DNA from: Nitrosospira multiformis ATCC 25196
GTDB taxonomy: Bacteria > Pseudomonadota > Gammaproteobacteria > Burkholderiales > Nitrosomonadaceae
DNA length: 18,871 nt
Direction of reading: 5' to 3'
Assembly (NCBI RefSeq): GCF_000196355.1
Contig: NC_007615.1
Span: 1 to 18,871 of the forward strand
The stretch's first letter is position 1. The number at the start of each line of letters is the position of its first letter. Under the pieces are notes generated by a model. That model did not search any database. It had not been told where the DNA came from and was given only the letters and a program-made list of their open reading frames with translations. Both the position numbers and the translations under genes were made by a program. Shown piece after piece: positions 3,066 through 18,870 of this stretch.

Positions 3066-4604
3066 ATGTCCTTTGCAAGCAGCCTGGATACTCCACTACT
3101 GAATCTCTCAGCAAAAGACTCTTTCACCCTGCGCGATGCCTGTAATGGCGTTCATATTTTCGGAGGAATAGGCTCCGGTAAAACCAGCGGTTCAGGAAAA
3201 ACTCTCGCCGGCGCTTATTTGCGTGCCGGCATGGGGGGCCTGGTGCTATGCGCCAAGCCCGAGGAAGTGAATCTCTGGCTTGATTACGCTAACCAGCATG
3301 GACGGCGCAGGTCAGTAATCCTGTTCGATGAAAACGGGGGATTCAACTTCATTGACTACGAGCTGGCACGACAGGGAACAAAGGGCATCAGCAACGTTAC
3401 CGAGTGTTTGTTGCGGGTACTGGAAGCCGCCGACCAGGCCACCGGCAGGCATGGAGGAACATCCGACCAGTTTTGGGTCGATGCTATCCGCCAGATCCTC
3501 AATTACACCATACCCGCCATTTATTCAGCTTACGCCAGGGTAACAGTCAGTGACATCATTTACTTTGTCAGCTCCGCCTCTACAAAACCCGAGCAACTGG
3601 CTGATGATAATTGGGTAGCTGAGAGCTATTACGCCCGGACCTTGCGCCGTGTCATAGAAAATCCGAAAGTGCCGATAGAGGAGAATGCCAGGCAATCCTT
3701 GCTTCACTACTGGTCCACGCAATATCCGGCTATTCCTGAAAAAACCAGGGGCAATATGGTGATTTCCCTGTCCACCCGGCTTGACCGCTTCCGGCATGGG
3801 AGCCTGCAAAAGTCGTTTTGCGGGAATACGGACATAGTTCCTGAAATGACCTTTCATGGGGCAATCATCATCATGAACATGCCAGCCCTGACCTGGAATG
3901 AAGATGGCATTATCGGCCAGCAGCTTTTCAAATTCATGTGGCAGCGGGCGGTTGAATCACGCAATGGGCTGGATAAAACCCAGCATGAACGCCCCGTATT
4001 TCTCTGGGCGGATGAGGCGCAGTATTTTACGAATCTGAAGGACGACCAGTTTTTATCAACCTGCCGCGGCTCCAGAGCCTGCGTGGTATTTCTGACTCAG
4101 ACCCTGCCCAGTTACTACGCGGTTTTTGGTAGGGATAAAAGCGATGCCGCTGACGGGCTGGTAGGAAAATTCAATACCCAGATATTTCACCAAAATGCCT
4201 GCAACCGAACCAACCACTTCGCATCCGAGATGATTGGGCGCGCGCTCCAGCTCCGCAACACAACGGGCAGGAGCACCGGAACCAGCCAGTCGGAGGGTTT
4301 GAGCCAGGGTAGCAGTGAAACCTCCGGCCATACGCGCGGAAATAGCGGTTACGGTAAATCAGGTGGAAGCGGGGAAAATATCGGGAGCAATATAGGTATG
4401 GGAAGAACCGAAACCTTCAGCACCGGTGCTAGCGAGCAGATGGATTATCTGGTTCAGCCAATGTTTTTTGCCAGCAATCTTAAGTCAGGAGGCAAAAAAC
4501 ATGGCAATCAGGTTTCCGCCCTGTGGTTTAAGGTGGGGGGCCATTTTCAGAACGCAATCGGCGCTAAAGGCGGCAATACGCTGCATGTTACTTTCAGACA
4601 ATGA
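3066..4604 (+). CDS. TraG/TraD/VirD4-like coupling-protein ATPase lacking an N-terminal membrane anchor
   Basis: Walker A is GGIGSGKT (residues 33-40, nt 3162-3185), followed by a second SGSGKT. The Walker B-like motif is VFLWADEAQ (D316-E317 at 4011-4016). FLTQTLPSYYAVFG and NHFASEMIGR resemble the conserved post-Walker-B motifs of T4CPs. A Gly/Ser-rich tract spans residues about 398-457. An AGGAG RBS lies 5 nt upstream. No hydrophobic helices are present. Confidence 0.6.
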   Translation: MSFASSLDTPLLNLSAKDSFTLRDACNGVHIFGGIGSGKTSGSGKTLAGAYLRAGMGGLVLCAKPEEVNLWLDYANQHGRRRSVILFDENGGFNFIDYELARQGTKGISNVTECLLRVLEAADQATGRHGGTSDQFWVDAIRQILNYTIPAIYSAYARVTVSDIIYFVSSASTKPEQLADDNWVAESYYARTLRRVIENPKVPIEENARQSLLHYWSTQYPAIPEKTRGNMVISLSTRLDRFRHGSLQKSFCGNTDIVPEMTFHGAIIIMNMPALTWNEDGIIGQQLFKFMWQRAVESRNGLDKTQHERPVFLWADEAQYFTNLKDDQFLSTCRGSRACVVFLTQTLPSYYAVFGRDKSDAADGLVGKFNTQIFHQNACNRTNHFASEMIGRALQLRNTTGRSTGTSQSEGLSQGSSETSGHTRGNSGYGKSGGSGENIGSNIGMGRTETFSTGASEQMDYLVQPMFFASNLKSGGKKHGNQVSALWFKVGGHFQNAIGAKGGNTLHVTFRQ

Positions 4605-5917: not shown

Positions 5918-6135
5918 ATCTATTGATGCAAGCAAAAAATTTTGGAGGATAGGATTATCGACGAGCTGGAGCTGGATTGCTGACACTACGAATCGGATAC
6001 AATCGGGTGAAGACGAAATACGTGGCCTTGAGCGAGGTTGCTATCAAGGGTGAGAAATCATCACAAAGGCCAGCCCTTGGAAGCTAGTCTTTGTTTTTAT
6101 ATGAGCTTCAAAATTTAGCAGGAGATAAACTCTCC

Positions 6136-6166
6136 TTGACATTTTATGTTAGTTCCGCCATATTAT
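6136..6166 (+). promoter_or_regulatory. Candidate promoter of the higBA-like operon
   Basis: TTGACA at 6136-6141 is followed by CATATT (6159-6164, 17-nt spacer) or TATTAT (6161-6166). The -10 ends only 5-7 nt before the annotated ATG at 6171, and there is no Shine-Dalgarno sequence. Confidence 0.4.
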
Positions 6167-6170
6167 AAAG

Positions 6171-6557
6171 ATGCAGGATGTAAGAAAAACAATAAAACCT
6201 GTGGAGTGGGTCGGCTCAAGTTTCAGGGATTTCCGCGCGTTTCCTGATGCGGTCAAAGATGAAATGGGCTATGCGCTACACCAAGCTCAAATAGGTGGCA
6301 AAAGCCTCAGTGCTAAACCGCTTCAGGGGTTTGGGGGAGCCGGTGTTCTTGAAATTGTGACTAATGAGATGGGAGATACGTTTCGCGCTGTTTATACGGT
6401 GAAATTCGCAACGGCCATCTATGTGCTGCACGCTTTTCAAAAGAAATCGAAAAGTGGAATTAAAACACCTGCTGAAGACATGAAACTGATTGAACAAAGA
6501 TTCAAAGCAGCGGAAGCCGATTACAGGCTTCAACTTGAAAAAGGAAAAATATCATGA
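6171..6557 (+). CDS. higB: HigB/Gp49-like (RelE/ParE superfamily) toxin
   Basis: KPVEWVGSSFRDFRAFPDAVKDEMGYALHQAQ...GAGVLEIV...FRAVYTVKFATAIYVLHAFQKKSKSGIKTP matches the phage Gp49/HigB-like family pattern closely. The toxin-first gene order and the ATGA overlap with the antitoxin gene fit this family. Confidence 0.88.
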   Translation: MQDVRKTIKPVEWVGSSFRDFRAFPDAVKDEMGYALHQAQIGGKSLSAKPLQGFGGAGVLEIVTNEMGDTFRAVYTVKFATAIYVLHAFQKKSKSGIKTPAEDMKLIEQRFKAAEADYRLQLEKGKIS

Positions 6558-6907
6558 CTCAAGATATTGAAAACACCATTGTGCGCGGTTCCGAAAACCT
6601 TTTTGCAGACCTTGGTTATGCCGACGCTGAAACACATCTGCTTAAAGCTGGACTGGTGAACCGTATTCAGGAAGTTATCAACGAACAAAAAATGACACAA
6701 ACCGTTGCAGCCAAACGTATGGGGCTTAGTCAACCAGATGTGTCACGCCTGCTCAAGGGACATTTCCGCGATATATCCGTAGAACGCCTGATGCGGCTGT
6801 TGACCCGGCTTGGTTGTGAGATTGACATTGTCATCCGGGAGCAAGGTAAAAAAACTTCCCGCCGTAATACCATCCATCTAGGAATGGACGTCAACGTTAC
6901 GGCTTAA
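6554..6907 (+). CDS. higA: XRE-family HTH antitoxin (HigA-like)
   Basis: NLFADLGYADAE...MTQTVAAKRMGLSQPDVSRLLKGHFRDISVERLMRLLTRLGCEIDIVI is the typical partner of Gp49/HigB-like toxins. Confidence 0.85.
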   Translation: MTQDIENTIVRGSENLFADLGYADAETHLLKAGLVNRIQEVINEQKMTQTVAAKRMGLSQPDVSRLLKGHFRDISVERLMRLLTRLGCEIDIVIREQGKKTSRRNTIHLGMDVNVTA

Positions 6908-6936
6908 TTTCTTAAGGGTGGGGTGAACGTACCATT

Positions 6937-6990
6937 TTAACAGTCGGCAAAAACCGCTTCACTGTCCACCCCTTGACGGCCATTTAACCC
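6937..6990 (-). pseudogene. Decayed 3' fragment of a second phd-like antitoxin gene
   Basis: On the plus strand, 6938-6975 aligns with 5641-5679 (the 3' end of phd): TAACAG-TCGGCAAAAACCGCTTCACTGTCCACCCCTT versus TAACAGTTCGGCAAAAACTGCTTCGCCGTCCACCCCTT. The fragment has a 1-nt deletion. Its minus-strand translation is ..GLNGRQGVDSEAVFADC*, compared with ..QLNRGEGVDGEAVFAELLSEA* for phd. No upstream part of the gene remains. Confidence 0.55.
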
Positions 6991-7009
6991 GCTTGAAGGA
7001 GGAACGGGA

Positions 7010-7381
7010 ATGACCAAAGGACTTATTTTTCAGGAAATATGGAACAGCCTGCCATCTGACCGTAAGGCACAGATCGAGGCGCGTACCCGCAAGCTGGAAG
7101 CGGAATATCTGACCTTACAGGAACTACGCAAGGAAGCTGGGCTGACACAAGCCGGAGTATCGCAGGAGCTGGGAATGCCTCAATCCAATGTCTCCCGCCT
7201 GGAGAAAGGGTCTGACATGCTGCTTTCTACCTTGCGTCAGTATGTGGAAGCTGTTGGCGGAAAACTCAATCTCACCGTTGAGCTGCCAAACGAACCCCCT
7301 ATCAGGCTGAATGTGCTGAGTGACCTTGTAGACCACCCACTCACTATAGAAGGTTCGCAGCCGCAGGCACCGGTGCAATAA
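7010..7381 (+). CDS. XRE-family HTH protein, orphan antitoxin-like
   Basis: LTLQELRKEAGLTQAGVSQELGMPQSNVSRLEKGSDMLLSTLRQYVEAVGGKLNLTVELP is the pattern of HigA-type antitoxins that normally follow a RelE/HigB toxin gene. A strong GAAGGAGG RBS is present. No cognate toxin ORF lies upstream. Confidence 0.8.
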   Translation: MTKGLIFQEIWNSLPSDRKAQIEARTRKLEAEYLTLQELRKEAGLTQAGVSQELGMPQSNVSRLEKGSDMLLSTLRQYVEAVGGKLNLTVELPNEPPIRLNVLSDLVDHPLTIEGSQPQAPVQ

Positions 7382-7389
7382 GGGTGGAT

Positions 7390-7432
7390 TCTGCAAGATG
7401 AAACTATTTTCTCTTGCTTGCAGAAATTTTTT
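7390..7432 (+). terminator. Candidate terminator for the XRE gene, overlapping the 3' end of the convergent nuclease gene
   Basis: TCTGCAAG (7390-7397) pairs with CTTGCAGA (7417-7424); alternatively GCAAGA pairs with TCTTGC. AAATTTTTT follows. The loop is rather large. Confidence 0.35.
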
Positions 7433-8837
7433 GCGTAGCATCGATCACAACAATCTCTGAGGCTGGTTCTCCACTCTCCAGGAGTGCATCACGTATTGCT
7501 TGTATGGTCGTAAGTTTTTTACCTAAATCGCCATAGTCAAGCACCACGAAGACACCATGGCTGGTGCGTGACGCGTCCTTATAAATCTCAAGCTGTTCTT
7601 TGTACCCATGTACGACAGTGCCCGATGAGCGTTTCATTTCAACAAGAACACGGGCACTATAACCCTTAGAATATTTAAAATCGATTGGTCCTCCACCCAT
7701 ATTAGCTTCCGGTGAAATGTCAATATCATTGGCTTTACAGAAGCAGTCGGTAATTGCAAAGTAAATTAGCTGGGCTGCGCGTTCCTTCTTCGGTTTATCG
7801 TCTATCCAAAGGGCCTCCCAGAGATTGCCCTTTTCTACATGATGCTTGAACATATCCATTGTGTCGTTTACGACACGATGGATTTCATCGATACCCTTCT
7901 CAATTTCATATTTTTTATTGGATTTAAGTTCATATTCTTTGCTACCAAGTATCCTCCTCAATGTGTAGTAGCCTAGAACATCACTGTTCGGATCATAATA
8001 TGCCGCATTCTCTTTAATGGCGGCAATAAAGGCTTCGAAAAGTTCTTTGGATTGAAGTGCTGCTTCACGGACAGCCTTTTTGAGATCATCAACTTTTGGG
8101 CGAGTAATACCTGCCAGGAGATGATTTACCCGTGCTCGGATGGCAGCGTTAGCGTCTATTGCTGCCTCAATATCCGACCAATCATTAGCCATTGGTAACT
8201 CCCGAACAATATCAGCGGGCACAAGCACAATCGCCCGCTCTTTTCCATTTGCAGAGGTGTAATGGGGTAATGGGATATCAGGAGAGGTATCTGACGTCTT
8301 TAACGTAATACCCAGAGGTGTGCAAAATTCATGGGTGAGCTTCGCGAGCTGTGGCTCAATTATTCTGGAAGTTAGGTCACTGATAGTATCTGCGCCGACT
8401 TTTTCTTCAAAAAAGCCCATAAGTGAAATCATCTCAGGATCTTGAGAGCCAAGCTCAATAATTTCTTTAGCTGTTCGAAGAATCGCGTTACGAATTTCTT
8501 CAGGGCGGGAAGTGCCAGGACGGTCGCTCCTTCCATAACCAAGGCCATTTGCAGGAGCTTCGCGAAGGTTAAATTGATTCTGGGCAGCCCTCCAAGCTGC
8601 ATCCCCCTCCTTCTTAGAAATGGCAAGCAGTCTAATTACATTTTCAAAATATTTCCTAAATGCTTTGTACGCTTCCTCACTAATGATCTTGTTTGAGCAT
8701 TTATCAAGCAAGATGGGATCAATGAACAAGCGCGTATCAACCGTCAGAAAGGGGTCGATCAATCCTGCCTTTGCAAGTTCATCCGGCGCAATTTTGAAAT
8801 GTTTGGAGAAAAGAAGGGGATTTGAGAAAGATGCCAT
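7404..8837 (-). CDS. 477-aa protein with a C-terminal RecB/Cas4-type PD-(D/E)xK nuclease domain and an unknown N-terminal domain of about 340 aa
   Basis: The motifs appear in order: helix KE352RAAQLIYF, GGGPID386F (GAT at 7680-7682), VLVE400-M-K402 (GAAATGAAA at 7632-7640), and Q415-LEI-Y419 (QxxxY). The gene is monocistronic and visibly AT-richer than its neighbours. I recognise no motif in residues 1-340. Confidence 0.6.
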   Translation of the reverse strand: MASFSNPLLFSKHFKIAPDELAKAGLIDPFLTVDTRLFIDPILLDKCSNKIISEEAYKAFRKYFENVIRLLAISKKEGDAAWRAAQNQFNLREAPANGLGYGRSDRPGTSRPEEIRNAILRTAKEIIELGSQDPEMISLMGFFEEKVGADTISDLTSRIIEPQLAKLTHEFCTPLGITLKTSDTSPDIPLPHYTSANGKERAIVLVPADIVRELPMANDWSDIEAAIDANAAIRARVNHLLAGITRPKVDDLKKAVREAALQSKELFEAFIAAIKENAAYYDPNSDVLGYYTLRRILGSKEYELKSNKKYEIEKGIDEIHRVVNDTMDMFKHHVEKGNLWEALWIDDKPKKERAAQLIYFAITDCFCKANDIDISPEANMGGGPIDFKYSKGYSARVLVEMKRSSGTVVHGYKEQLEIYKDASRTSHGVFVVLDYGDLGKKLTTIQAIRDALLESGEPASEIVVIDATQKISASKRK

Positions 8838-8996
8838 AATTTCGCTAAATAGAATTGAGCGAAAACTTATTTCGCCGCATTAAAACAATCTGCTATTGAG
8901 AGGAGCCGTTTAGATTGTAAGTTTTACGGCTGAGCAAGCAATTGGACTTAGGTACACCTGTCGCTGAGTATGGGTATTGAAGTTCTGTTGAGTCGC

Positions 8997-9042
8997 GGTA
9001 AATCTACTATTGATAAAATACGTTATCAATAGTAGATTTACC
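8997..9042. promoter_or_regulatory. Perfect 20-6-20 palindrome: candidate recombinase core site and/or operator
   Basis: GGTAAATCTACTATTGATAA (8997-9016), spacer AATACG, TTATCAATAGTAGATTTACC (9023-9042). The arms are exact reverse complements. The palindrome ends 2 nt before the recombinase ATG. Confidence 0.6.
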
Positions 9043-9044
9043 CA

Positions 9045-10016
9045 ATGACAACTCAAAACCCCGATTCCCAAAATGCCCTGCCTGCTACTAATCGGCGGCT
9101 TACTGCCGTTGCCTATCAGCGCCTCGCCGACATACCCCCTGAAATTGAATGGTTCGCCAACCTTCCGAATGATGCAACCCGCCGCGCTTACAACAATGCG
9201 CTAAAGGATTTTATGGGCTTTACTGACATCACCCGGCCTGATGAATTCCGTAGCGTAACCCGTGCGCATGTAATTGCCTGGCGCGACGAGCTGGTTAAAC
9301 GCTCTTTAAGTGGAACGACCATCCGCCACCGTCTCGCCGCTTTATCCTCTCTGTTCGAGTATTTATGCGAAAGAAACGCGGTAACCCATAATCCTGTGAA
9401 GGGGGTGAAGCGTCCCCCGGTGGAAAGCTATGAAGGTAAAACTCCGGCTCTTGGCGATCACCAGGCGCGTGCGCTGCTCGATGCTCCGCATAGTCTCTCA
9501 CTCAAGGGCAAGCGTGACCGTGCCTTGCTTGCTACCCTGCTCTACCATGCGCTGCGGCGCGACGAGCTATGCAGGCTCACCGTCAAGGATTTCAGGCATG
9601 AACGGCGTGGGGTCCGTCACTTGCGGGTCCTGGGTAAAGGCGGCAAGACCCGTTATATCCCGTTACACCCTGCCGCCAGCACTCTCATCACCGAGTATCT
9701 GGAAGCAGCGGGACATGGCGCGGAAGATTCAGCTCCCCTTTTCCACCCCGTCAGTAATAACTGCGCTGGGGTTTCAAGCAAGGCCCTTACGCCCGACGGG
9801 GTTTATAAGCTGGTACGCGAATATTCTTCAAACCTTGGTTTTGAAATTGGCCCGCACTCCTTGCGGGCTACCGCTGCGACTAACGCCCTGGACCATCAGG
9901 CCGATATTTCCAAAGTGCAGGAATGGCTGGGCCATGCCAATATCTCCACTACCCGCATTTATGACCACCGCAGGAGCCGACCCGAGGATAGTCCGACGTT
10001 TAAGGTTAGTTATTAA
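9045..10016 (+). CDS. Tyrosine recombinase / integrase (XerC/XerD-like)
   Basis: The N-terminal SAM-like region is TIRHRLAALSSLFEYL. The catalytic-domain motifs are RDRALLATLLYHALRRDEL (Arg), GKGGKTRYIPLHP, HSLRATAAT (HxxR), and LGHANISTTRIYDH (His and the nucleophilic Tyr). Confidence 0.9.
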   Translation: MTTQNPDSQNALPATNRRLTAVAYQRLADIPPEIEWFANLPNDATRRAYNNALKDFMGFTDITRPDEFRSVTRAHVIAWRDELVKRSLSGTTIRHRLAALSSLFEYLCERNAVTHNPVKGVKRPPVESYEGKTPALGDHQARALLDAPHSLSLKGKRDRALLATLLYHALRRDELCRLTVKDFRHERRGVRHLRVLGKGGKTRYIPLHPAASTLITEYLEAAGHGAEDSAPLFHPVSNNCAGVSSKALTPDGVYKLVREYSSNLGFEIGPHSLRATAATNALDHQADISKVQEWLGHANISTTRIYDHRRSRPEDSPTFKVSY

Positions 10017-10097
10017 AATTCTCTGTTATGGGGTGACGGGTGTGTAGTACGGCCAGGAAAGGCGGCCAGCGGCTCTAATTGTTTGCACCTATCTAGG

Positions 10098-10119
10098 CCG
10101 TCGCGATCATAAGCGACGG
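10098..10119 (+). terminator. Candidate hairpin downstream of the recombinase gene
   Basis: CCGTCGC (10098-10104) pairs with GCGACGG (10113-10119) around an 8-nt loop, followed by the T-rich ACATTTCGCTTTCTGC. Confidence 0.25.
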
Positions 10120-10327
10120 ACATTTCGCTTTCTGCTTAACAATTCGTAGGCTACAGCGACGAATGTTTATTTGATGCTCTAATGGTTCGACCTTGCGCCG
10201 GCTTTAAACGGTCAGAACGAGGCTGCTTGATAGCTCGGCTTGAGCGCACATTGAGAAGGTGAAAAGATCGATATATCACGGGCAAGGTGGAGGAAGAGCC
10301 GGTGGTAAAGGGGAGGATGCTGTAAGC

Positions 10328-10897
10328 TTAATTCTTAATTAAGATTCCAATAGGAATAAAGGGGGCATGGTTATATATTTGAAGCCCACGAACTTCAGAA
10401 AATTCTGAGGCTGATCTATAAGTTTTAAATAAACCAAATTTATTTATTGTTTTACTCAGGTAATTTTGAAAGAAGGGTATTTCACTTATTTTACCACACC
10501 CACTTAGGCCGCTAATTAAACCACGTAAATCTAGGATGTCGAATCCCATTAGTCGCCATCCCATATTTATAAGGGCAGTTTCCGAAGGCTGCTCCTCAAA
10601 CCATCCAAACCCATAGTGTTCTCTAAGGGCAATAGTATTTATTTCTAAACATGTCAACGAAATAAGACTTAATTGATCTATAGAAATATGATTTGATCGA
10701 CAAGTATTTATAAGGTCTTCAATATGCGTCGCAAGTGTTAGAGGATTACTTAAAGCATGAGCGTTATTTTGTATAAGATCATCAACTAGGGGAGGGCGAG
10801 GCCAAATATTTGGGTCGCCACTGATTTGCATGTGATTATTCAAATCCAGAGAAATTCTTAGATCGAATCCCAAACTTATTCTTCGATTCCTCATCAT
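10328..10897 (-). CDS. Putative immunity protein for the RHS C-terminal toxin (189 aa from the ATG; the track ORF extends to a TTG at 10930)
   Basis: The gene lies immediately downstream of the rhs gene. The minus strand reads TAATGATG, so the rhs TAA stop (10899-10897) shares its final A with an ATG (10897-10895), which suggests translational coupling. The gene is markedly AT-rich, like the toxin tip. No recognisable family, signal peptide or TM segment. Confidence 0.55.
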   Translation of the reverse strand: MMRNRRISLGFDLRISLDLNNHMQISGDPNIWPRPPLVDDLIQNNAHALSNPLTLATHIEDLINTCRSNHISIDQLSLISLTCLEINTIALREHYGFGWFEEQPSETALINMGWRLMGFDILDLRGLISGLSGCGKISEIPFFQNYLSKTINKFGLFKTYRSASEFSEVRGLQIYNHAPFIPIGILIKN

Positions 10898-13800
10898 TAT
10901 TGGTGAGGCCAAGTTGTATAATTGCCACAATCTTTTATTTCTTCTTTTCCTACTGGAGCTACCGGGGGAAATTGAGTTGTTCCTTTCGATCCACTCCCTC
11001 TATTCCAATAGCATTGACAAGTGTTAGGATTTTGTCCACGACTCCAAATATGATAGTGTGGATCCCACCCATTATGTGTGTGTCCAGTGTCGGGTTCATA
11101 ACATTGGGTTCCCTGAGGTGGATTACAGGGGGGGCAAATAGGTGGTTGAGCAGTTTTATTCTGAGCCGTTTTGGATTCTGAGTTTCCTGAGCACGCGTCA
11201 TATATCGTTGCTCCAGTGATTAAAATAGCCCAACCAGCCCACTTCTGCCAGGCTATATCGCTCGGATCCGGGGTTGCTATGTCAGAACTGGCCCCGCCAA
11301 GTATCCAAGGAAGTGCCCTCAGACCTAAAGGATCAATCATATTAATTGGATTTCCTCCCACATACCCATAAAGATTTAATCCTCCTTTTTCTCCAATCGG
11401 GTCACGCGATAGCCACTTCGCCGTTTTCGGGTCATAGGCCCGGAAATTCGTCAGGTACAATCCGCTCTGCTGATGATAGAACATCCCCGCATAGCGAAAG
11501 TCAACTGAAATCCGCCCACTCCCCGCTATCTGGTTTCCATAAGGATCATAGTCGTAGCTTGCCACCTTGGCCCCATTCTGGGCCGCCATCACGTCCCGCA
11601 CCGAGCCTAGATGGTCAGTGCCGTAATAAAGCAGAGTGCCGCCCTGCGGAATTGCCATGCCTTGCGGGTAATAGCGGCGTGTGACCACATCGCCTGCCGT
11701 TCTGGCCTGGCACAGCGTAGCGCCGCACCAGAGATGACGGGTTTCTGTTATTGCTCCTCCATTATTTTCGACAATAGCCAGCCGCCGCCCCATGCCATCG
11801 TAGCGGAACGTGGTCGCCTTGCTGGGATCGTTCTTGTAGCTGATGGAGAGCAGACGGTTTTCGGCATCCCACTGATAGGTGCGGACTCCGTCATCCTTCA
11901 GATTGCCGTTGGCGTCGTAACTGAAGCTTTCACTGTTAAAACTCGTCAATTGGTTGACGGTGTTGTAATGCGTCAACGCGCCATTGAGGGAAGTCAGGTT
12001 GTCAGCGGCGTCATAACCATAGCTGAAGCTTCCCCCGGATGAAGGCTGGGCGGAGAGGAGGCGGTCAGCGCCATCATAGGCGTAGTGCCAGCTCTTCTGC
12101 GCTGCTCCCCCCGCAGTTTCCGTCAGAGTGGAAATCTGGTTTTCCGGGGTGGTGGCATAGTGGAAACCGCGCGCCAGACCGCTGTTCGTGATCGACTTCA
12201 GGCGGCGGTCATGGGTGTTGTCCTCATAGCCCCACTGCGTTCCCACAGCCCCGGCCTGCTGGCTTAAAAGCTGCCCAGTCTGACCCAGATAGCTGAAATT
12301 GAAGGAGCCCAGCGGATTGGTATGCTGGGTGACGCGGTCGAGCCTGTCATAGGCAAAGGACTCGGTTATCGTATCCACCTTGCGGCTGGTCATCCGCCCC
12401 AATGCATCGTACTGGTAGGAAATCTCGTCATTGGTATAAGGCCCGTTCTCACCTGTCAGCTTGAGCGCCCCCAGGGAGCCGACAGCGCCATACTGGAACT
12501 GGGTGGTTCCCGCCCCATCGGTCATGGTGGTTCTGCGCGGGAAATAGGGGTCGTAGGCGAAGCTTACGCCCGGTGTGGGACTTATAGCATTGGCATAACT
12601 CAGCGCCGCGAGCCGGTCGTCCTTCGTATAGCCATACTGCCTGGTCTGTCCCAAAGCGTCGGTTACGCTTATCAGGCGGCTTGCGCTGTCATAGGCATAG
12701 GTTTCCCTGGAATCGTCGGCATAAACCTTGGCAATGGGGCGGCTCTGGATATCGATATCCCAGCGCGTCATGTTCCCGTTGCCGTCGGTGATGCTGCGCA
12801 ACACCCCGTTACGGTAATAGCTGTAACTGGTGGTCTGACCCGCAGGATCGGTCATCGAGGTCATGCGCCGGTTGGCGTCATAGCTGTAGCTCGTGGCCCT
12901 CCCCATCCTATCTTTTGTTTCTACCAGGTCGAGCAGGTCATAGGTATTCAGCGTGCTGGTTCCATCGGGATAGAGGATTTGCGTAACCCGGTCGAGGGCG
13001 TCGTATTCATAGGCCAGGGTGTGGCCTTCCGAATCGGTGGCGGTGGCAACGCGGTCGAAGGCGTCATAGGTGAAGCTGTGCTGCACCGCGTTATCCGGGT
13101 TGGTGATCGATATCAGCCGTCCCAGCCCATCATAGGCATAGCGCGTGGTCTGCCCGAGCGCGTCGGTCACGCCCGTTACCTGGCCATCCGAGTTGTAGGT
13201 ATAGGAAGTTGTCTTTCCCGCCGCATCGGTCGCAGTCAGGGGAAGGTGCTGGCTGTTGTAGGTGAAGGCCGCCAGCGTGGCCTGGCCGCTGCCCGTGGTC
13301 TGCTGGATGGAAGTAAGATCGATGTCATTGGAAGCGTAGGTAAAGGAAGTCTTGCGTCCTGTAGGATCTATGGCTGTGAGCGGCTTGCCGATGCTGTTAT
13401 AGGTAAATCTTCTTGCTTGCGTGGAGCCGTCATCTAATACTCGGCCGATTGCTATCGGTGTCCCGGCAGTTCCTTCCATGATGGAATTACCTTGTCCCGG
13501 GTAGGTATTCCAGACGCGGCGCTCAAGGGGCTGTTTGCTGCTTTCTATGATCGGCGAGGTCTGTCCAGCCGGGTTATGGAGCCAGTGAATGATTCGGGCT
13601 TGGGTGTAATCGGTATGAGTGATAGCATAAAGATGCTTGTCCCAGTGGAAAGTATTACGGTAGTAAAGAAAACCGTTCAGTATCCCCATGCCAGCCGGAG
13701 CCACAGGATCACCATTGGGTATGCCGGAAGCAAAATGCCGGAATTCCAGTCGTTCGGTAAAACCCATCGGATCGGTCATTTCCAAGAAGCGTGAGTTTTC

Positions 13801-15696
13801 ATAGATGTTCTGCCCATAGGTGAAATGATGGGTACCATAGGGTGTCGTCATTTCATTGATGAGCCCCCCCGTATCGTATTTGAAGGAGGAAGTAATGCCG
13901 ATCACATCGGTGATCGAGGCGAGACGTCTGTTTGTGTCGTATGTCAGTTCGGCACGGCGTCCGAATGGATCGGTTATTCCGGTTACGAGCAGGGGATTGG
14001 CAGGGAACTCATAACTGAAGATGGTGTTGCGGCCAGTGGCATCCGTGAGCGATACCAGGCGCAACTGATTGTCATAATTGAACGTTAGCGCGTTACCCGA
14101 AGGATCGATTATTTGGCTTAAGAACATGCGGCGCGGGTATACGGTTGCGCCATCGCTCTGGGCGAATACCTGCTTGCTTCCATCGGGCATGCGCAATTCA
14201 TAGGAAGTGGCGGGACCGGTGGCGGGTATGCGAACCAGCACTGCCTGACCCTGACGTTCAGGCGAGAACGCGCCGGATGCCGTTGAATAGCTGTAGCCGA
14301 TCGAATAATCCACCGATCCCCCGCCTGCCGCATAGCGCAGAACTGAGCGGCCCGGCGAGTCGGGAGTATCCTGAACCCAGGACAGCACGTTCAGTGTCCA
14401 TTTGGGGCTGATATTGAAAAAGCTGAAATTGGCTGGCTGGCTGGCTTCGCGCTGATTGTAGGTCAGGCTGATTTTGGCGGAAGGCCCCTTCGGCGGCTGG
14501 TACCCGACCGGAACGTCGCTTAAGTTCAGGCTCACCAGCATCATTTTAGCGTTCACTACACACATGGCTGGTGGTGACGCTGCGGAGCCAGTGAGAGGAA
14601 CAGGGCCTTTTGGATTGGAGCAGGTCAAGTTGCTATCAAGCTTCTGTGTCGTACCGGGCTGATTAACACTTGTCTGTCCCATTCCATAGATACGCCTTGC
14701 CTCTTCAGGAGTGGCCATACGCCAGGACGCAACTTTCTGGGTTCCAGCCGGAACCAGGAAATACCCGCTTGCCTCCGCATCGATGGCCTCCTTGGTGAGC
14801 CAGGCATCCCCGCTTGCGAAGGTGGGATCCTGGACATGGTAGAGGCCGTTCTGCTCACCGATGATGGCAGCATAATGATTCAGTTTCCAGTTCACCACTG
14901 AGGGGACGGGGATGGGCTGTCCGGGAGCACGGAAAATCAGCCGATGAGGTACGTTGGCCTTGCTTGCCAGCTCCGATACCTGGGCAAGCGTGTAGCCATG
15001 CGGACCTGAGCGCGCCGCATCCATGATGGCGATTTTTGCCGGATCGGCCTGGGCCGAGACCAGCAGACTCTTGAGCGCCATGGGACCGCAAAGGTAAGCC
15101 TTGTCGTACTCGTTTCGGAACATCCACAGGCTTTCATGAGCGTCCGTGATCAATTCCGTGGCGGGACCGCTGATGGGCCGGTCCTTGATATCGGCAAGCA
15201 GTTTTTCAAGCTCGTCCGCATGTCCCAGGCGGGAGTGCATGCGCATCAGCTCCCCCATGGCGCGGTCTGCCAGCATCTTGCCCATAGGATTATCGGCGGG
15301 ACGAGTTCTTTCCGTCTGCCAGGCCCGCTCCCACGCATTTATCGCCCTGGAGAAATAGCCCTGGCGGTAATAGGCAAGCCCCAGATTGGCGAGAATCCCG
15401 ACATTCCATCCCGAGCGCGGATACTCTTTAAGGAAAGTCTCGAATACGGCCAGATCTTCAAAAGACGACTGGCTGCGATGGGTGGAGATGGCTTCCGCGA
15501 GGGCCCGGTCTTCCTTCGGCGTGGTTCCATACATGGGAACCAGAGGCTCCTCGAATCCATCCACCTTGAGAAGCGGAAGAGGCGCGGGGTTTTCTGGAGG
15601 GGCGGCATGGAGGAGAGGGCTTGCCAGCAAAAGCAGCGTGGCAAAAAGAGAGGGAATGAAACGGGAAACGGCCATACTGGACCAGAGGCGAGCCAT
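10897..15696 (-). CDS. rhs: Secreted RHS/YD-repeat polymorphic toxin (1599 aa)
   Basis: Dozens of YD repeats are present (for example YTYNSDGQVTGVTDALGQTTRYAYDGLGRLISITNPDN). The RHS-associated core ends FRAYDPKTAKWLSRDPIGEKGGLNLYGYVGGNPINMIDPLGL. The N-terminus is a signal peptide. An AGGAG RBS lies 5 nt upstream of the ATG at 15696. Confidence 0.95.
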   Translation of the reverse strand: MARLWSSMAVSRFIPSLFATLLLLASPLLHAAPPENPAPLPLLKVDGFEEPLVPMYGTTPKEDRALAEAISTHRSQSSFEDLAVFETFLKEYPRSGWNVGILANLGLAYYRQGYFSRAINAWERAWQTERTRPADNPMGKMLADRAMGELMRMHSRLGHADELEKLLADIKDRPISGPATELITDAHESLWMFRNEYDKAYLCGPMALKSLLVSAQADPAKIAIMDAARSGPHGYTLAQVSELASKANVPHRLIFRAPGQPIPVPSVVNWKLNHYAAIIGEQNGLYHVQDPTFASGDAWLTKEAIDAEASGYFLVPAGTQKVASWRMATPEEARRIYGMGQTSVNQPGTTQKLDSNLTCSNPKGPVPLTGSAASPPAMCVVNAKMMLVSLNLSDVPVGYQPPKGPSAKISLTYNQREASQPANFSFFNISPKWTLNVLSWVQDTPDSPGRSVLRYAAGGGSVDYSIGYSYSTASGAFSPERQGQAVLVRIPATGPATSYELRMPDGSKQVFAQSDGATVYPRRMFLSQIIDPSGNALTFNYDNQLRLVSLTDATGRNTIFSYEFPANPLLVTGITDPFGRRAELTYDTNRRLASITDVIGITSSFKYDTGGLINEMTTPYGTHHFTYGQNIYENSRFLEMTDPMGFTERLEFRHFASGIPNGDPVAPAGMGILNGFLYYRNTFHWDKHLYAITHTDYTQARIIHWLHNPAGQTSPIIESSKQPLERRVWNTYPGQGNSIMEGTAGTPIAIGRVLDDGSTQARRFTYNSIGKPLTAIDPTGRKTSFTYASNDIDLTSIQQTTGSGQATLAAFTYNSQHLPLTATDAAGKTTSYTYNSDGQVTGVTDALGQTTRYAYDGLGRLISITNPDNAVQHSFTYDAFDRVATATDSEGHTLAYEYDALDRVTQILYPDGTSTLNTYDLLDLVETKDRMGRATSYSYDANRRMTSMTDPAGQTTSYSYYRNGVLRSITDGNGNMTRWDIDIQSRPIAKVYADDSRETYAYDSASRLISVTDALGQTRQYGYTKDDRLAALSYANAISPTPGVSFAYDPYFPRRTTMTDGAGTTQFQYGAVGSLGALKLTGENGPYTNDEISYQYDALGRMTSRKVDTITESFAYDRLDRVTQHTNPLGSFNFSYLGQTGQLLSQQAGAVGTQWGYEDNTHDRRLKSITNSGLARGFHYATTPENQISTLTETAGGAAQKSWHYAYDGADRLLSAQPSSGGSFSYGYDAADNLTSLNGALTHYNTVNQLTSFNSESFSYDANGNLKDDGVRTYQWDAENRLLSISYKNDPSKATTFRYDGMGRRLAIVENNGGAITETRHLWCGATLCQARTAGDVVTRRYYPQGMAIPQGGTLLYYGTDHLGSVRDVMAAQNGAKVASYDYDPYGNQIAGSGRISVDFRYAGMFYHQQSGLYLTNFRAYDPKTAKWLSRDPIGEKGGLNLYGYVGGNPINMIDPLGLRALPWILGGASSDIATPDPSDIAWQKWAGWAILITGATIYDACSGNSESKTAQNKTAQPPICPPCNPPQGTQCYEPDTGHTHNGWDPHYHIWSRGQNPNTCQCYWNRGSGSKGTTQFPPVAPVGKEEIKDCGNYTTWPHQ
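10900..11319 (-). other. 140-aa variable C-terminal toxin tip of the RHS protein (unassigned family)
   Basis: The tip comprises a hydrophobic segment WAGWAILITGATIY, then the Cys/His cluster CPPCNPPQGTQCYEPDTGHTHNGWDPHYHIWSRGQNPNTCQCYW. The region is AT-richer than the YD core. Confidence 0.7.
11320..11334 (-). other. DPLGL motif marking the RHS core / toxin-tip boundary
   Basis: The reverse complement of 11320-11334 is GATCCTTTAGGTCTG, encoding D-P-L-G-L. This is the conserved PxxxxDPxGL demarcation of RHS proteins. Confidence 0.9.
14749..15114 (-). other. C39-like (papain-fold) cysteine peptidase domain within the RHS N-terminal region
   Basis: YLC203GPMALKSLL ... WKLNH274YAAIIGEQNGLYHVQD290P has the CG...HY..(hydrophobic)...DP spacing typical of peptidase C39 and C39-like domains. 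It is preceded by TPR-like helices (NLGLAYYRQGYFSRAINAWERAW). Confidence 0.55.
15604..15696 (-). other. Sec-type signal peptide of the RHS protein
   Basis: MARLWSSMAVSRFIPSLFATLLLLASPLLHA/APPENP has a basic n-region, a hydrophobic core and an AxA-like cleavage site (LHA). Confidence 0.7.
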
Positions 15697-15806: not shown

Positions 15807-16472
15807 TCATGCCTTGACTTTCCTGCGGCGCAGAGCCCACGCTCCCGCCCCTCCCAAACAGAGCAAGGCGAGGCTTGAAGGCTCAGGTAGCGGGTTGGGC
15901 GGTGGCGTGGTCGAACCTGGTGCGAAGGTCAGGTTATCCAGTGTGAATTGCGTGCAGTTCACTGTGCCGCACTGGAACGGGTCCGTTGTGGAGCCAGTTG
16001 CAGCCGCGAAGAAATTCAGTTCGTTGATGCCGGTGAAGCCAAAGTTTACAAACAGGGGAGCAGCCGTATCGAGGGTCAGGGTTGTTGTGAACAGCAAAGT
16101 TCCATTCAGCCTGCCCTGCACCGTGAGGCTCAGATCATCGTAATAGCCGGAACCCAGATAAGCGCTAACAAAGTCGAAGGGATCGTCGGCTTCTATTTTG
16201 CCGATAACGGGAGTAACGATCGGGCCGAACGACTCACCCCCGCTATAGGCGGCATTATCGGGGGAGACAATGCCGTTATTGAATCCGGGAAAGCCGGGAA
16301 TGCTCGTATAGGCCGAGAAATTAGTCCAGGTGAAACCCTGATAAGGGCTCAGGGTATCCAGAACCAGATCGCCGCCTGAAGCGTCAAGATCATCGAAATT
16401 GACGATGGCGGCAGAAGCAAGGGAAATCTGGGAAAGCAGGAGGGTGGCAGTAAAAGCGATTTTGGAAAACAT
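15807..16472 (-). CDS. PEP-CTERM sorting-domain protein (221 aa)
   Basis: The signal peptide is MFSKIAFTATLLLSQISLASA. The C-terminus PLPEPSSLALLCLGGAGAWALRRRKVKA has a PEP motif, a TM helix and an Arg/Lys cluster. The body has the FDDL...YQGFTWTNF pattern common in PEP-CTERM proteins. A GGAGGAG RBS is present. Confidence 0.88.
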   Translation of the reverse strand: MFSKIAFTATLLLSQISLASAAIVNFDDLDASGGDLVLDTLSPYQGFTWTNFSAYTSIPGFPGFNNGIVSPDNAAYSGGESFGPIVTPVIGKIEADDPFDFVSAYLGSGYYDDLSLTVQGRLNGTLLFTTTLTLDTAAPLFVNFGFTGINELNFFAAATGSTTDPFQCGTVNCTQFTLDNLTFAPGSTTPPPNPLPEPSSLALLCLGGAGAWALRRRKVKA

Positions 16473-16774: not shown

Positions 16775-17470
16775 ATGCCAACCATAGTTTTTGCTTCCAG
16801 TAAGGGCGGGGCGGGAAAAACCACTGCCGCAATCATTCTGGCATCCGAATTTGCAAGACAGGGGGCAGCAGTCACGCTTATTGATGCCGACCCCAACCAG
16901 CACAGCGCGAAATGGGCATTAAAACTGGGCTGCCCTGCGAATATCTCTCTTGTGGAGAATACAAACGAAGAAAGCATTATTGAAGACATCGAGGAGGCCG
17001 AGGCAAAAACCGCTTTTGTCCTGGTTGACCTGGAAGGAACGGCAAGCATGGCGGTAGCAAGCGCCATAAGCCGCGCTGATCTGGTTATTACCCTGTGTCA
17101 GGGTTCACAGGATGATGCCGATGAAGCAGCAAAAACCATCAAGCTTATCAAGCGGCAATCTAAACTCCTGCAACGCCCCATCAATTTTTCTGTTCTGATG
17201 ACCCGTACCAATCCGGCCATTACCCCGCGAACGCTACGCCATATCATGGGCGAGTTTGAAGCGGCGGGAGTGCATATTTTTACAACCAGCCTCATTGACC
17301 GTGAAGCCTTTCGCGCTATGCGCTCTTTCGGCGGCACCGTAAATGATTTGAATCCGAAAGAGGTTTCCGGCATTGAGAAGGCAGCTCAGAATGTCCGCGA
17401 GCTGGCTAAGGAGGTTATAGCCAGGCTGAAAGAAGGGCAGAAGCAGGAAAGGATTAGCGCACATGGGTAA
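16775..17470 (+). CDS. parA: ParA-family partition ATPase
   Basis: The deviant Walker A SSKGGAGKTT is at the N-terminus. The TLIDADPNQ and VLVDLEG motifs are present, and the 231-aa size is typical of plasmid ParA. Confidence 0.92.
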   Translation: MPTIVFASSKGGAGKTTAAIILASEFARQGAAVTLIDADPNQHSAKWALKLGCPANISLVENTNEESIIEDIEEAEAKTAFVLVDLEGTASMAVASAISRADLVITLCQGSQDDADEAAKTIKLIKRQSKLLQRPINFSVLMTRTNPAITPRTLRHIMGEFEAAGVHIFTTSLIDREAFRAMRSFGGTVNDLNPKEVSGIEKAAQNVRELAKEVIARLKEGQKQERISAHG

Positions 17471-17829: not shown

Positions 17830-18870
17830 ATGCCAAAAAAGAAAACGCTCGTAGCAGTACCCTCAGCAGTACCCCCTCGCGCGCCTATAAAAAGCCTTCA
17901 ATATGACCTGTTCTCGCTGTTTGTCACTAATGAACCCAATTCAGTATCAAATACGATTGAACTATGGGACTGCATCCCAAAATATTTTTTCACCCCCAAG
18001 CAGGTAGAAAAACTGCGGACAGCAGACGGGCTGGCAAAGCCTTACAAATGGGAATATTCCTATAACGGCCTGCCATGCGCGGTAAAAATACAGCCAGCCC
18101 TGATAGAAGAAGAGGACGGAAATTTTAAAGCGTATTTTCCAAGCGTGACTGAGGAGCTTGTAGAAGAAGCCCTGAAAAAGATTTTTACCGACAAGCATTA
18201 CGGTACTCACGATCCGCAAAATTCTGAAAGCTGGGTCAAATTTTCATTAAGCATGCTTTACCGCGAACTCATGACCAGGGGCCGAAGCCGCAGCTATAAG
18301 GAGATTAAACGCGCCATCGAGGTCATGAATAAATGCAACATAGCCTTTTACAAGGATGGAAAAGAGCTTTGGAGTGGCGCCATACTTCAGGACCTGGTGA
18401 CAGTAGACCGCAAGGAGTATATCGCCGATACCGACTCCCACCATATAGCGCGATTGCCACTGTTTATATCCCACGCCATTAACCAGCTCGAATACCGCCA
18501 GTTCAACTATAACCGCCTGATGAGCTGCAACGAGCAGTTGGCGCGTTGGATTTACAAACGGTTAATTAACCGCTTCCGCCAAGCCAGTTTCATAAATGAA
18601 TACCATTTCATGTATTCCGATATTGAGCAATCGAGCGGCTTACTACAGCAAGGCCGAGAAACCGACAATCGAAAAAAAGTTATATCTTCTCTGGAAGAGT
18701 TACAAAAATGCGGGATTCTGATGAGATATGAAACCGATGAACGAAAAGAAGGCCGCAAAGTTATCGATATTAAATATACGCTCTACGCCGGTTCAGATTT
18801 TATCGGGGAACAAAAAGCAGCTAATAAACGGGCAAGCGATGCAGAGCTGAGTATGCCTGTGGATAAGTAG
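17830..18870 (+). CDS. repA: Plasmid replication initiator (iteron-binding Rep)
   Basis: This is the last gene of the par-rep operon, and its stop is followed across the window junction by the iteron array. The N-terminal pattern DLFSLF...NTIELWDCIPKYFF and the 346-aa size resemble TrfA/RepA-type initiators. The family assignment is not verified. Confidence 0.7.
   Translation: MPKKKTLVAVPSAVPPRAPIKSLQYDLFSLFVTNEPNSVSNTIELWDCIPKYFFTPKQVEKLRTADGLAKPYKWEYSYNGLPCAVKIQPALIEEEDGNFKAYFPSVTEELVEEALKKIFTDKHYGTHDPQNSESWVKFSLSMLYRELMTRGRSRSYKEIKRAIEVMNKCNIAFYKDGKELWSGAILQDLVTVDRKEYIADTDSHHIARLPLFISHAINQLEYRQFNYNRLMSCNEQLARWIYKRLINRFRQASFINEYHFMYSDIEQSSGLLQQGRETDNRKKVISSLEELQKCGILMRYETDERKEGRKVIDIKYTLYAGSDFIGEQKAANKRASDAELSMPVDK
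18858..18866. promoter_or_regulatory. DnaA box (TGTGGATAA) inside the last codons of rep
   Basis: Exact 9-mer in the same orientation as the three boxes at 179, 322 and 387. It lies 12 bp upstream of iteron 1 once the sequence is circularised. Confidence 0.5.

Follow-up and report, generated by a model that had tools for sequence, protein, structure and literature searches.

A divergent cysteine-stapled branch of the Ntox24 superfamily with a candidate new immunity family at the tip of an RHS protein of Nitrosospira multiformis

The window analysed here is the entire stretch of 18,871 nucleotides from contig NC_007615.1 of the soil nitrifier Nitrosospira multiformis ATCC 25196, and the subject is the C-terminal tip of an RHS polymorphic toxin that is encoded on the minus strand of this window, together with the gene immediately downstream. 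Sequence comparison places the tip most readily in the Ntox24 superfamily, as a divergent, Cys-stapled branch that has its own, new immunity family; it does not amount to a categorically new kind of system. The two genes are very probably a true toxin/immunity pair belonging to an Ntox24-related family; the further suggestion that the toxin is a metal-independent RNase is tentative. For the combined explanation, that is, a toxin/immunity module in which the toxin is an RNase, we give a blended probability of roughly 0.5.

The toxin tip and its relationship to Ntox24

The RHS gene (10897..15696, minus strand; ABB76079.1, WP_011382064.1, UniProt Q2Y592) is an open reading frame (ORF) for a protein of 1599 amino acids. 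The RHS repeat-associated core domain (residues 1383-1459; 11320..11550, minus strand; Rhs_assc_core, TIGR03696, E 4.2e-23) ends with the motif GNPINMIDPLGL, which stops at residue 1459, directly before the variable tip, and by its position includes the DPLGL of the PxxxxDPLGL self-cleavage motif (residues 1455-1459; 11320..11334, minus strand). The 140 residues that follow DPLGL (11319..10900, minus strand, with the TAA stop at 10899..10897) are the variable toxin tip, as had been recognized in a preliminary description made from the letters of the sequence. The shift to an AT-richer composition after DPLGL noted in that description is also real: the RHS shell has a GC fraction of 0.56, against 0.474 for the tip and 0.354 for the downstream gene. 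The best explanation of this region is that it is the cargo of a putatively Sec-exported RHS polymorphic toxin.

The tip contains 7 of the 12 Cys residues of the whole RHS protein and displays the motif C62-P-P-C65-x7-C73-x6-H80-T-H82-x5-H88-Y-H90-x10-C101-Q-C103 (numbering by tip residue), with 5 Cys and 4 His within 42 residues. The pattern and the residue count given originally are correct, but the span had been put at 44 residues, and two of the spacers, now x6 and x10, had been read as x7 and x13. Profile searches, conservation and the AlphaFold2 (AF2) model jointly delimit a conserved toxin domain at tip residues 58-140 (10900..11148, minus strand), which includes the His quartet H80-T-H82-NGWDP-H88-Y-H90 (11050..11082, minus strand); within the quartet, H82 and H88 form the pair that is invariant throughout the family. 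The domain is preceded by a variable linker (tip residues 1-57; 11149..11319, minus strand) that contains a moderately hydrophobic, Trp-rich segment, IAWQKWAGWAILITGATIY. A hydrophobic helix had been proposed at this position, and a hydrophobic segment is indeed there, but its hydrophobicity is moderate, with a maximum Kyte-Doolittle 19-residue mean (KD19) of only 0.89 for WAGWAILITGATIY, so that it is not a clear transmembrane span. Among the 94 homologues with a DPxG motif, 93 could be scored, and in 79 of these the maximum KD19 of the linker is at least 1.0 (median 1.56).

Direct scans of the full 140-residue tip yielded no Pfam or NCBIfam match at E<=1, a phmmer and a profile search of the PDB sequences with the tip returned chance matches only (Fab chains and GLYR1), and PLSDB contains no protein match to the tip. 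The preliminary assertion that the tip lacks canonical HNH, deaminase, HExxH and ADP-ribosyltransferase signatures thus stands after Pfam and NCBIfam scans and inspection; deaminase, ADP-ribosyltransferase and HExxH peptidase readings were rejected because no such family matches at E<=1 and neither HExxH nor HxE...PCxxC is present by inspection.

The family becomes visible only with an exhaustive HMMER search: a word-indexed protein search identified a single relative of the tip, P0001, or 13 when an alignment was used, whereas a two-sequence profile of the window tip and P0001 retrieved 177 cluster representatives at a threshold of E<=1e-3, of which 47 remain at E<=1e-10. One match, an FG-GAP/VCBS-like repeat protein (P0136), was judged a false positive and excluded. 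In every family member, the domain ends within a few residues of the protein C-terminus. The 72 long members include 27 with RHS_repeat, 22 with an RHS core and 4 with DUF6531, in addition to one with Big/CarboxypepD_reg domains; CdiA, LXG and PAAR domains match none of the 72. A survey of carriers among RHS, contact-dependent inhibition and type VI secretion system (T6SS) proteins, as envisaged at the outset, thus uncovers RHS carriers, but no CdiA or PAAR proteins among these long members. Pattern scans detected 3 genome loci, in two Terracidiphilus metagenome-assembled genomes (MAGs) and one Azoarcus MAG, as well as 14 metagenome loci.

The Cys/His pattern is conserved beyond chance across 158 distinct homologues: C65 is present in 98% of these, P67 in 100%, G70 in 95%, T71 in 93%, Y74 in 77%, H80 in 77%, H82 in 96%, H88 in 98%, H90 in 87%, Q96 in 77%, C103 in 96% and W105 in 86%. 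All four His are retained in 102 of the 158 sequences. H80 is replaced in about 20% of the members, mainly by Lys or Arg (18 sequences in which the other three His are kept), but also by Ala or Gly, and H90 gives way to Asn, Lys or Arg in about 10% (11 sequences, with the first three His intact).

The relationship to Ntox24 emerges from the distant members of the family. Of the 69 members that were scanned singly, 28 match Ntox24 (PF15529) at E<=1, with scores mostly between 14 and 19 bits, and every other family matches at most one member. Two distant members of the P0088 type exceed the Ntox24 cut-off, with 38.8 and 25.7 bits, and the profile of the window tip and P0001 retrieves the P0088-type proteins with a whole-library E of about 4e-7; among the long members, 6 of the 72 match Ntox24 at E<=1e-3. 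A sequence that passes the cut-off led to a protein annotated as 'polymorphic toxin type 24 domain-containing protein' from plasmid pNe_1 of Nostoc edaphicum, which scores 56.2 bits against Ntox24 over profile positions 3-83. When the family profile is compared with this Nostoc Ntox24 by hhalign (P 0.0025), GHTHNGW-DPHYHIWSRGQNPNT aligns with GKAHGGIPTPHVTDYEININPRT, such that H82 and H88 correspond to the two His of the Nostoc domain, and Lys and Thr occupy the positions of H80 and H90, respectively. Any correspondence of Y74 to the conserved Tyr of Ntox24 falls outside the aligned stretch. The original suggestion of an undescribed family is therefore only partly upheld: there is no match to the tip at curated thresholds in Pfam or NCBIfam and no significant one among PDB sequences, but a sub-threshold relative exists, Ntox24, whose 24-bit cut-off is passed by distant members.

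Ntox24 ('Bacterial toxin 24', earlier Pfam id Toxin_49) was described by Zhang, de Souza, Anantharaman, Iyer and Aravind in 2012 (PMC3482391) as an all-beta domain with conserved Y, H and H that is carried by RHS, FilH, LXG and MuF proteins, is partnered by Imm50 or Imm53, and was suggested to be a metal-independent endoRNase like colicin E3; a 2020 review on Xanthomonas repeats the endoRNase assignment as a prediction only. The present family resembles Ntox24 in its position as cargo at the C-terminus of polymorphic toxins, RHS carriers among them, in its all-beta character and in the core G-[HK]-x-H-x-G-x(1-2)-[DT]-P-H ... N-x-N-P with two invariant His. The differences are considerable. The N-terminal half of the Ntox24 profile (positions 1-42) is replaced by C-x-x-C-x-P-P-x-G-T, and no member of the present family matches positions before about 43. 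Up to three Cys pairs are present, whereas the Nostoc Ntox24 domain has no Cys, and there are two additional His (H80 and H90). Among the 72 long members, the carriers are exclusively of the RHS type, with no CdiA, LXG or MuF, and the immunity family is a different one, neither Imm50 nor Imm53.

The Ntox24 superfamily is thus extended by a sizeable Cys-braced branch (177 clusters) that escapes the curated models and is paired with a new, confidently modelled immunity family, and the universally conserved residues of the superfamily are narrowed to two His. In the literature searched, the activity of Ntox24 has since 2012 been a computational guess only ('metal-independent endoRNase'). Because the same toxin/immunity pair is common in the genetically tractable Pseudomonas aeruginosa, the activity of the superfamily becomes directly testable.

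The downstream candidate immunity gene

The candidate cognate immunity gene (10328..10897, minus strand; SEG15515.1) encodes 189 amino acids, and its start codon ATG overlaps the RHS stop (TAATG), an arrangement that couples its translation to that of the RHS gene. An alternative record, WP_146063224.1, starts this protein later and comprises 167 rather than 189 amino acids; the longer form is supported both by the conservation of its N-terminal residues across the family (M..RR[IV]S.GFDLR) and by the overlap of its start with the stop codon of the RHS gene. The immunity protein lacks a signal peptide, a hydrophobic N-terminus and transmembrane segments, and there is no Pfam or NCBIfam match to it at E<=1.

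In each of the 17 fetched loci, which span Acidobacteriota, Beta- and Gammaproteobacteria, the toxin domain is immediately followed by a homologous gene for about 170-225 amino acids; the products share an N-terminal motif, M..KR[VI]S.GFDLR, and a C-terminal HAPF. A profile search with the immunity family found 59 database homologues; these proteins are unnamed or 'hypothetical' throughout and carry no Pfam domain. One homologue group occurs in hundreds of P. aeruginosa genome contigs. The AF2 model of the immunity protein is alpha/beta and confident, with a predicted local distance difference test score (pLDDT) of 91.9 and a predicted template modelling score (pTM) of 0.88. Foldseek finds nothing in the PDB better than E of about 1.5 for this model, and the family is unrelated to the gene beside the Nostoc Ntox24 (hhalign E 0.71).

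Several related loci differ from the window in the organization of the toxin gene. On a JGI contig (3300067032), P0001 is a 118-amino acid ORF (354-710) that consists of the tip only, so that its product lacks an RHS shell, and is followed by a 206-amino acid gene (717-1337) with the position and size of an immunity homologue; this pair looks like an orphan toxin/immunity cassette. In five loci with P. aeruginosa-type RHS genes (L012-L016, especially L015, 5928-10765), the same toxin domain comes after a glycine-zipper-like linker and is followed by an immunity homologue of 171-175 amino acids, the one that recurs in hundreds of P. aeruginosa genome contigs; in L015, the RHS frame is split over two overlapping ORFs (5928-7433 and 7166-10234). 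In another locus (L017), the frame of the toxin ORF (10001-10212) is lost directly after GHTHNG and the downstream immunity gene is intact, which may represent either a decayed toxin with immunity kept or a sequencing error.

The properties of the immunity protein bear on an alternative in which the toxin is membrane-active, with the hydrophobic or glycine-zipper linker forming an ionophore or a pore, as in Tse5 and the ionophoric CdiA-CTs, and the Cys/His domain being accessory, for example, in receptor binding or folding. The hydrophobic stretch in the linker of most homologues, the Gly-zipper_Omp-like stretch in the linker of P. aeruginosa-type members and the glycine-zipper toxins known from the literature are all compatible with such a role, but the linker sequence is unconserved and, in the window, weakly hydrophobic. 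An ionophore role is highly unlikely because it is the Cys/His domain that shows conservation and is inherited along with the downstream gene, and because the immunity protein, with about 190 amino acids and without a transmembrane segment, is soluble. Immunity to pore-forming and ionophoric toxins is usually conferred by a small membrane protein (Tsi5 and the immunity proteins, CdiI, of ionophoric systems).

Predicted fold and candidate activities

The AF2 model of the toxin domain, built from a 69-sequence alignment (pLDDT 90.5, pTM 0.75), is all-beta, with strands at tip residues 72-77, 88-96 and 103-107 and a 3-residue helical turn. This confident model contradicts the preliminary proposal of an HNH-like or beta-beta-alpha-metal nuclease: there is no conserved ligand-bearing helix in its topology, and none of the 69 members matches an HNH family, so that this candidate was rejected. 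The HNH and His-Me finger toxins (Tox-HNH, Tox-GHH, Tox-SHH and Tox-AHH) resemble the tip in being His-rich, sometimes stabilized by a Cys4 Zn site, and common on RHS tips, but match no member of the family in Pfam and differ in the metal-binding alpha-helix, which the predicted topology lacks.

Two of the three Cys pairs are each gained or lost as a unit. Among the 158 homologues, C62 and C101 occur together in 99 and are jointly missing in 51, with 8 discordant sequences; for C73 and C131, the corresponding counts are 85, 64 and 9 (Fisher p between about 1e-31 and 1e-33 for these co-occurrences). The third pair, C65 and C103, is near-invariant, with both residues present in 150 of the 158. 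The C62/C101 and C73/C131 pairs are mutually anti-correlated, and all three pairs are found together in about 40 sequences, the window tip included. Such pairwise gain and loss is the behaviour of structural staples, and we infer that the Cys pairs serve in this capacity, either as disulfides or as a Zn cluster.

In the mechanism that we favour, the toxin would be freed inside the RHS shell by autoproteolysis and delivered to a neighbouring cell, perhaps with the hydrophobic linker aiding membrane passage, and would act in the cytoplasm of that cell, a site of action suggested by the immunity protein, which has no signal peptide and looks cytoplasmic. There, it would cleave a phosphodiester substrate, most probably RNA, with H82 and H88 as the acid/base catalytic pair and H80 and H90 in phosphate binding, a role indicated by the Lys and Arg that substitute for these residues in relatives; Lys, Arg and Asn at the two positions also argue against a four-His metal site. 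The immunity protein would neutralize the toxin through 1:1 binding. The analogy that Zhang et al. drew, as a hypothesis only, is to rRNases such as colicin E3 and CdiA-CT(ECL) (Ntox21), which are likewise small, beta-rich cytotoxic domains with a catalytic His and no obvious metal site; the tip shows neither sequence nor Foldseek similarity to any PDB entry, colicin E3-type domains among them.

A number of observations weigh against this interpretation. The window tip itself scores 13.7 bits against Ntox24 (E 0.08), under the cut-off of 24, and matches profile positions 54-86 of 91 only, so that its membership in the superfamily is transitive. A search of 13 immunity homologues yielded no match to Imm50 or Imm53, and the Pfam matches at E<=1 are single chance matches only. 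The literature searched contains no experimental paper on any Ntox24, and the PDB holds neither an experimental Ntox24 structure nor a relative of the present family. Foldseek with the model of the toxin domain alone finds nothing at E<1 in the PDB or BFVD (best about 1.5); as neither an RNase nor any other fold is recovered, the basis of the RNase idea is residue logic. Furthermore, three Cys pairs are unusual in a toxin that acts in the reducing cytoplasm, and the two HxH elements, on neighbouring strands, may instead constitute a metal site.

The last of these points leads to the alternative, in essence the small metal-binding module of the preliminary description, of a metal-dependent hydrolase or nuclease in which H82, H88 and H90 hold a catalytic Zn or other metal, in a carbonic-anhydrase-type HxH plus H arrangement, and the CxxC and CxC motifs form a structural Zn knuckle. 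The strong conservation of the three His (96%, 98% and 87%) is compatible with such a site, the HxH-x5-HxH spacing would, given the strand assignment, place the His on one face of a hairpin, CxxC...CxC is a classic spacing of Zn ligands, and Zn is more plausible than disulfides if the toxin acts in the cytoplasm. The substitution pattern is harder to reconcile with it: about 20% of the members have Lys, Arg, Ala or Gly in place of H80, about 10% have Asn, Lys or Arg in place of H90, and classical Ntox24 has Lys and Thr at these positions, which leaves only two universal His, too few alone for a metal site. As for the structural Zn, C62 and C101 are jointly lost in about one third of the members (51 of 158) and C65 and C103 remain near-invariant, a pattern that two separate staples fit better than an obligatory Cys4 Zn site. 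Besides, no member matches HNH or any other metallo-nuclease family, and neither HExxH nor a beta-beta-alpha topology is present. Overall, we regard metal-dependent catalysis as rather doubtful.

The toxin could also be a non-enzyme, namely, a stapled module that poisons the cell by stoichiometric binding of an essential target, or else a non-toxic domain, as might be imagined for so small a domain (about 80 amino acids and three strands) with no detectable fold relative. This appears very unlikely in view of the near-invariant His and Cys, the strictly C-terminal location behind the RHS cleavage site and the obligatory, adjacent partner gene, which together are the standard signature of polymorphic toxin/immunity systems, and of the homology to Ntox24. 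A broader alternative, to which we assign a low probability, is a toxin that is no RNase and whose fold and chemistry have not been seen before, such as a minimal metal-dependent enzyme or a toxin with a new cytoplasmic target, accompanied by a fold-orphan immunity partner. If correct, this would establish a new class of effectors open to experiment, since hundreds of P. aeruginosa genomes carry this pair.

The RHS carrier and its replicon

The body of the 1599-residue protein is an RHS shell, with Pfam RHS_repeat (E 4e-72) in 14 stretches, NCBIfam YD_repeat_2x (E 1.4e-52) and NCBIfam RHS_core. A putative Sec-type signal peptide covers residues 1-31 (15604..15696, minus strand), namely, MARLWSSMAVSRFIPSLFATLLLLASPLLHAA followed by PP; its hydrophobic core has a Kyte-Doolittle 15-residue mean of 1.9, and both the peptide and its putative cleavage site are read from the translation. 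C-terminal to the signal peptide, Pfam detects TPR_2 at residues 101-125 and, C-terminal to it, a papain-like or Peptidase C39-like domain at residues 203-317 (14746..15090, minus strand); this Peptidase_C39 match is weak (20.9 bits, E 3.5e-4), slightly under the cut-off of 22, and the UniRef name of the protein is 'Peptidase C39, bacteriocin processing'. A second assembly of this strain, in which the contig measures 18,966 bp, has two partial proteins of 1032 and 598 amino acids in place of the single RHS protein, which suggests an assembly or frameshift difference within the repeat region.

Compared with the characterized RHS/YD-repeat toxins (Rhs of Escherichia coli and Dickeya, RhsA of Pseudomonas protegens, Tse5/RhsP2 of P. 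aeruginosa and TccC of Photorhabdus), the N. multiformis protein has the same YD-repeat shell, the same Rhs-associated core ending with PxxxxDPxGL, and the same arrangement in which a swapped tip richer in AT is followed by an immunity gene that overlaps it. It differs in the N-terminus, which combines a Sec signal peptide, TPR and a C39-like domain, as opposed to PAAR- or VgrG-linked delivery by T6SS, and in the toxin domain, which belongs to none of the characterized RHS types (DNase, ADP-ribosyltransferase or pore-former). The known competition machinery of this ammonia-oxidising bacterium thereby gains an RHS toxin of the Sec/C39 type, encoded on what looks like a small mobile replicon.

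Other genes give the whole window this mobile appearance. It encodes a ParA/VirC1-type partition ATPase (16775-17470), a TraG/TraD-type coupling protein of a type IV secretion system (3066-4604) and a tyrosine integrase (9045-10016), the latter encoded on the strand opposite to the immunity gene and some 300 bp past it. PLSDB contains no DNA match to the window. N. multiformis ATCC 25196 carries a plasmid of this size. Two ORFs, 7404-8837 (minus strand, 477 amino acids) and 17830-18870 (plus strand, 346 amino acids), have no Pfam match at E<=1e-3. On the plus strand, a gene for a Gp49/HigB-like toxin (6171-6557) overlaps a gene for an HTH_37/HigA-like antitoxin (6554-6907), a probable type II toxin-antitoxin pair, and a further helix-turn-helix gene lies at 7010-7381. 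Immediately upstream of the RHS gene and on the same, minus strand, a 221-amino acid protein with a PEP-CTERM sorting motif (E 3.3e-6) is encoded at 15807-16472 and may be in an operon with the RHS toxin gene.

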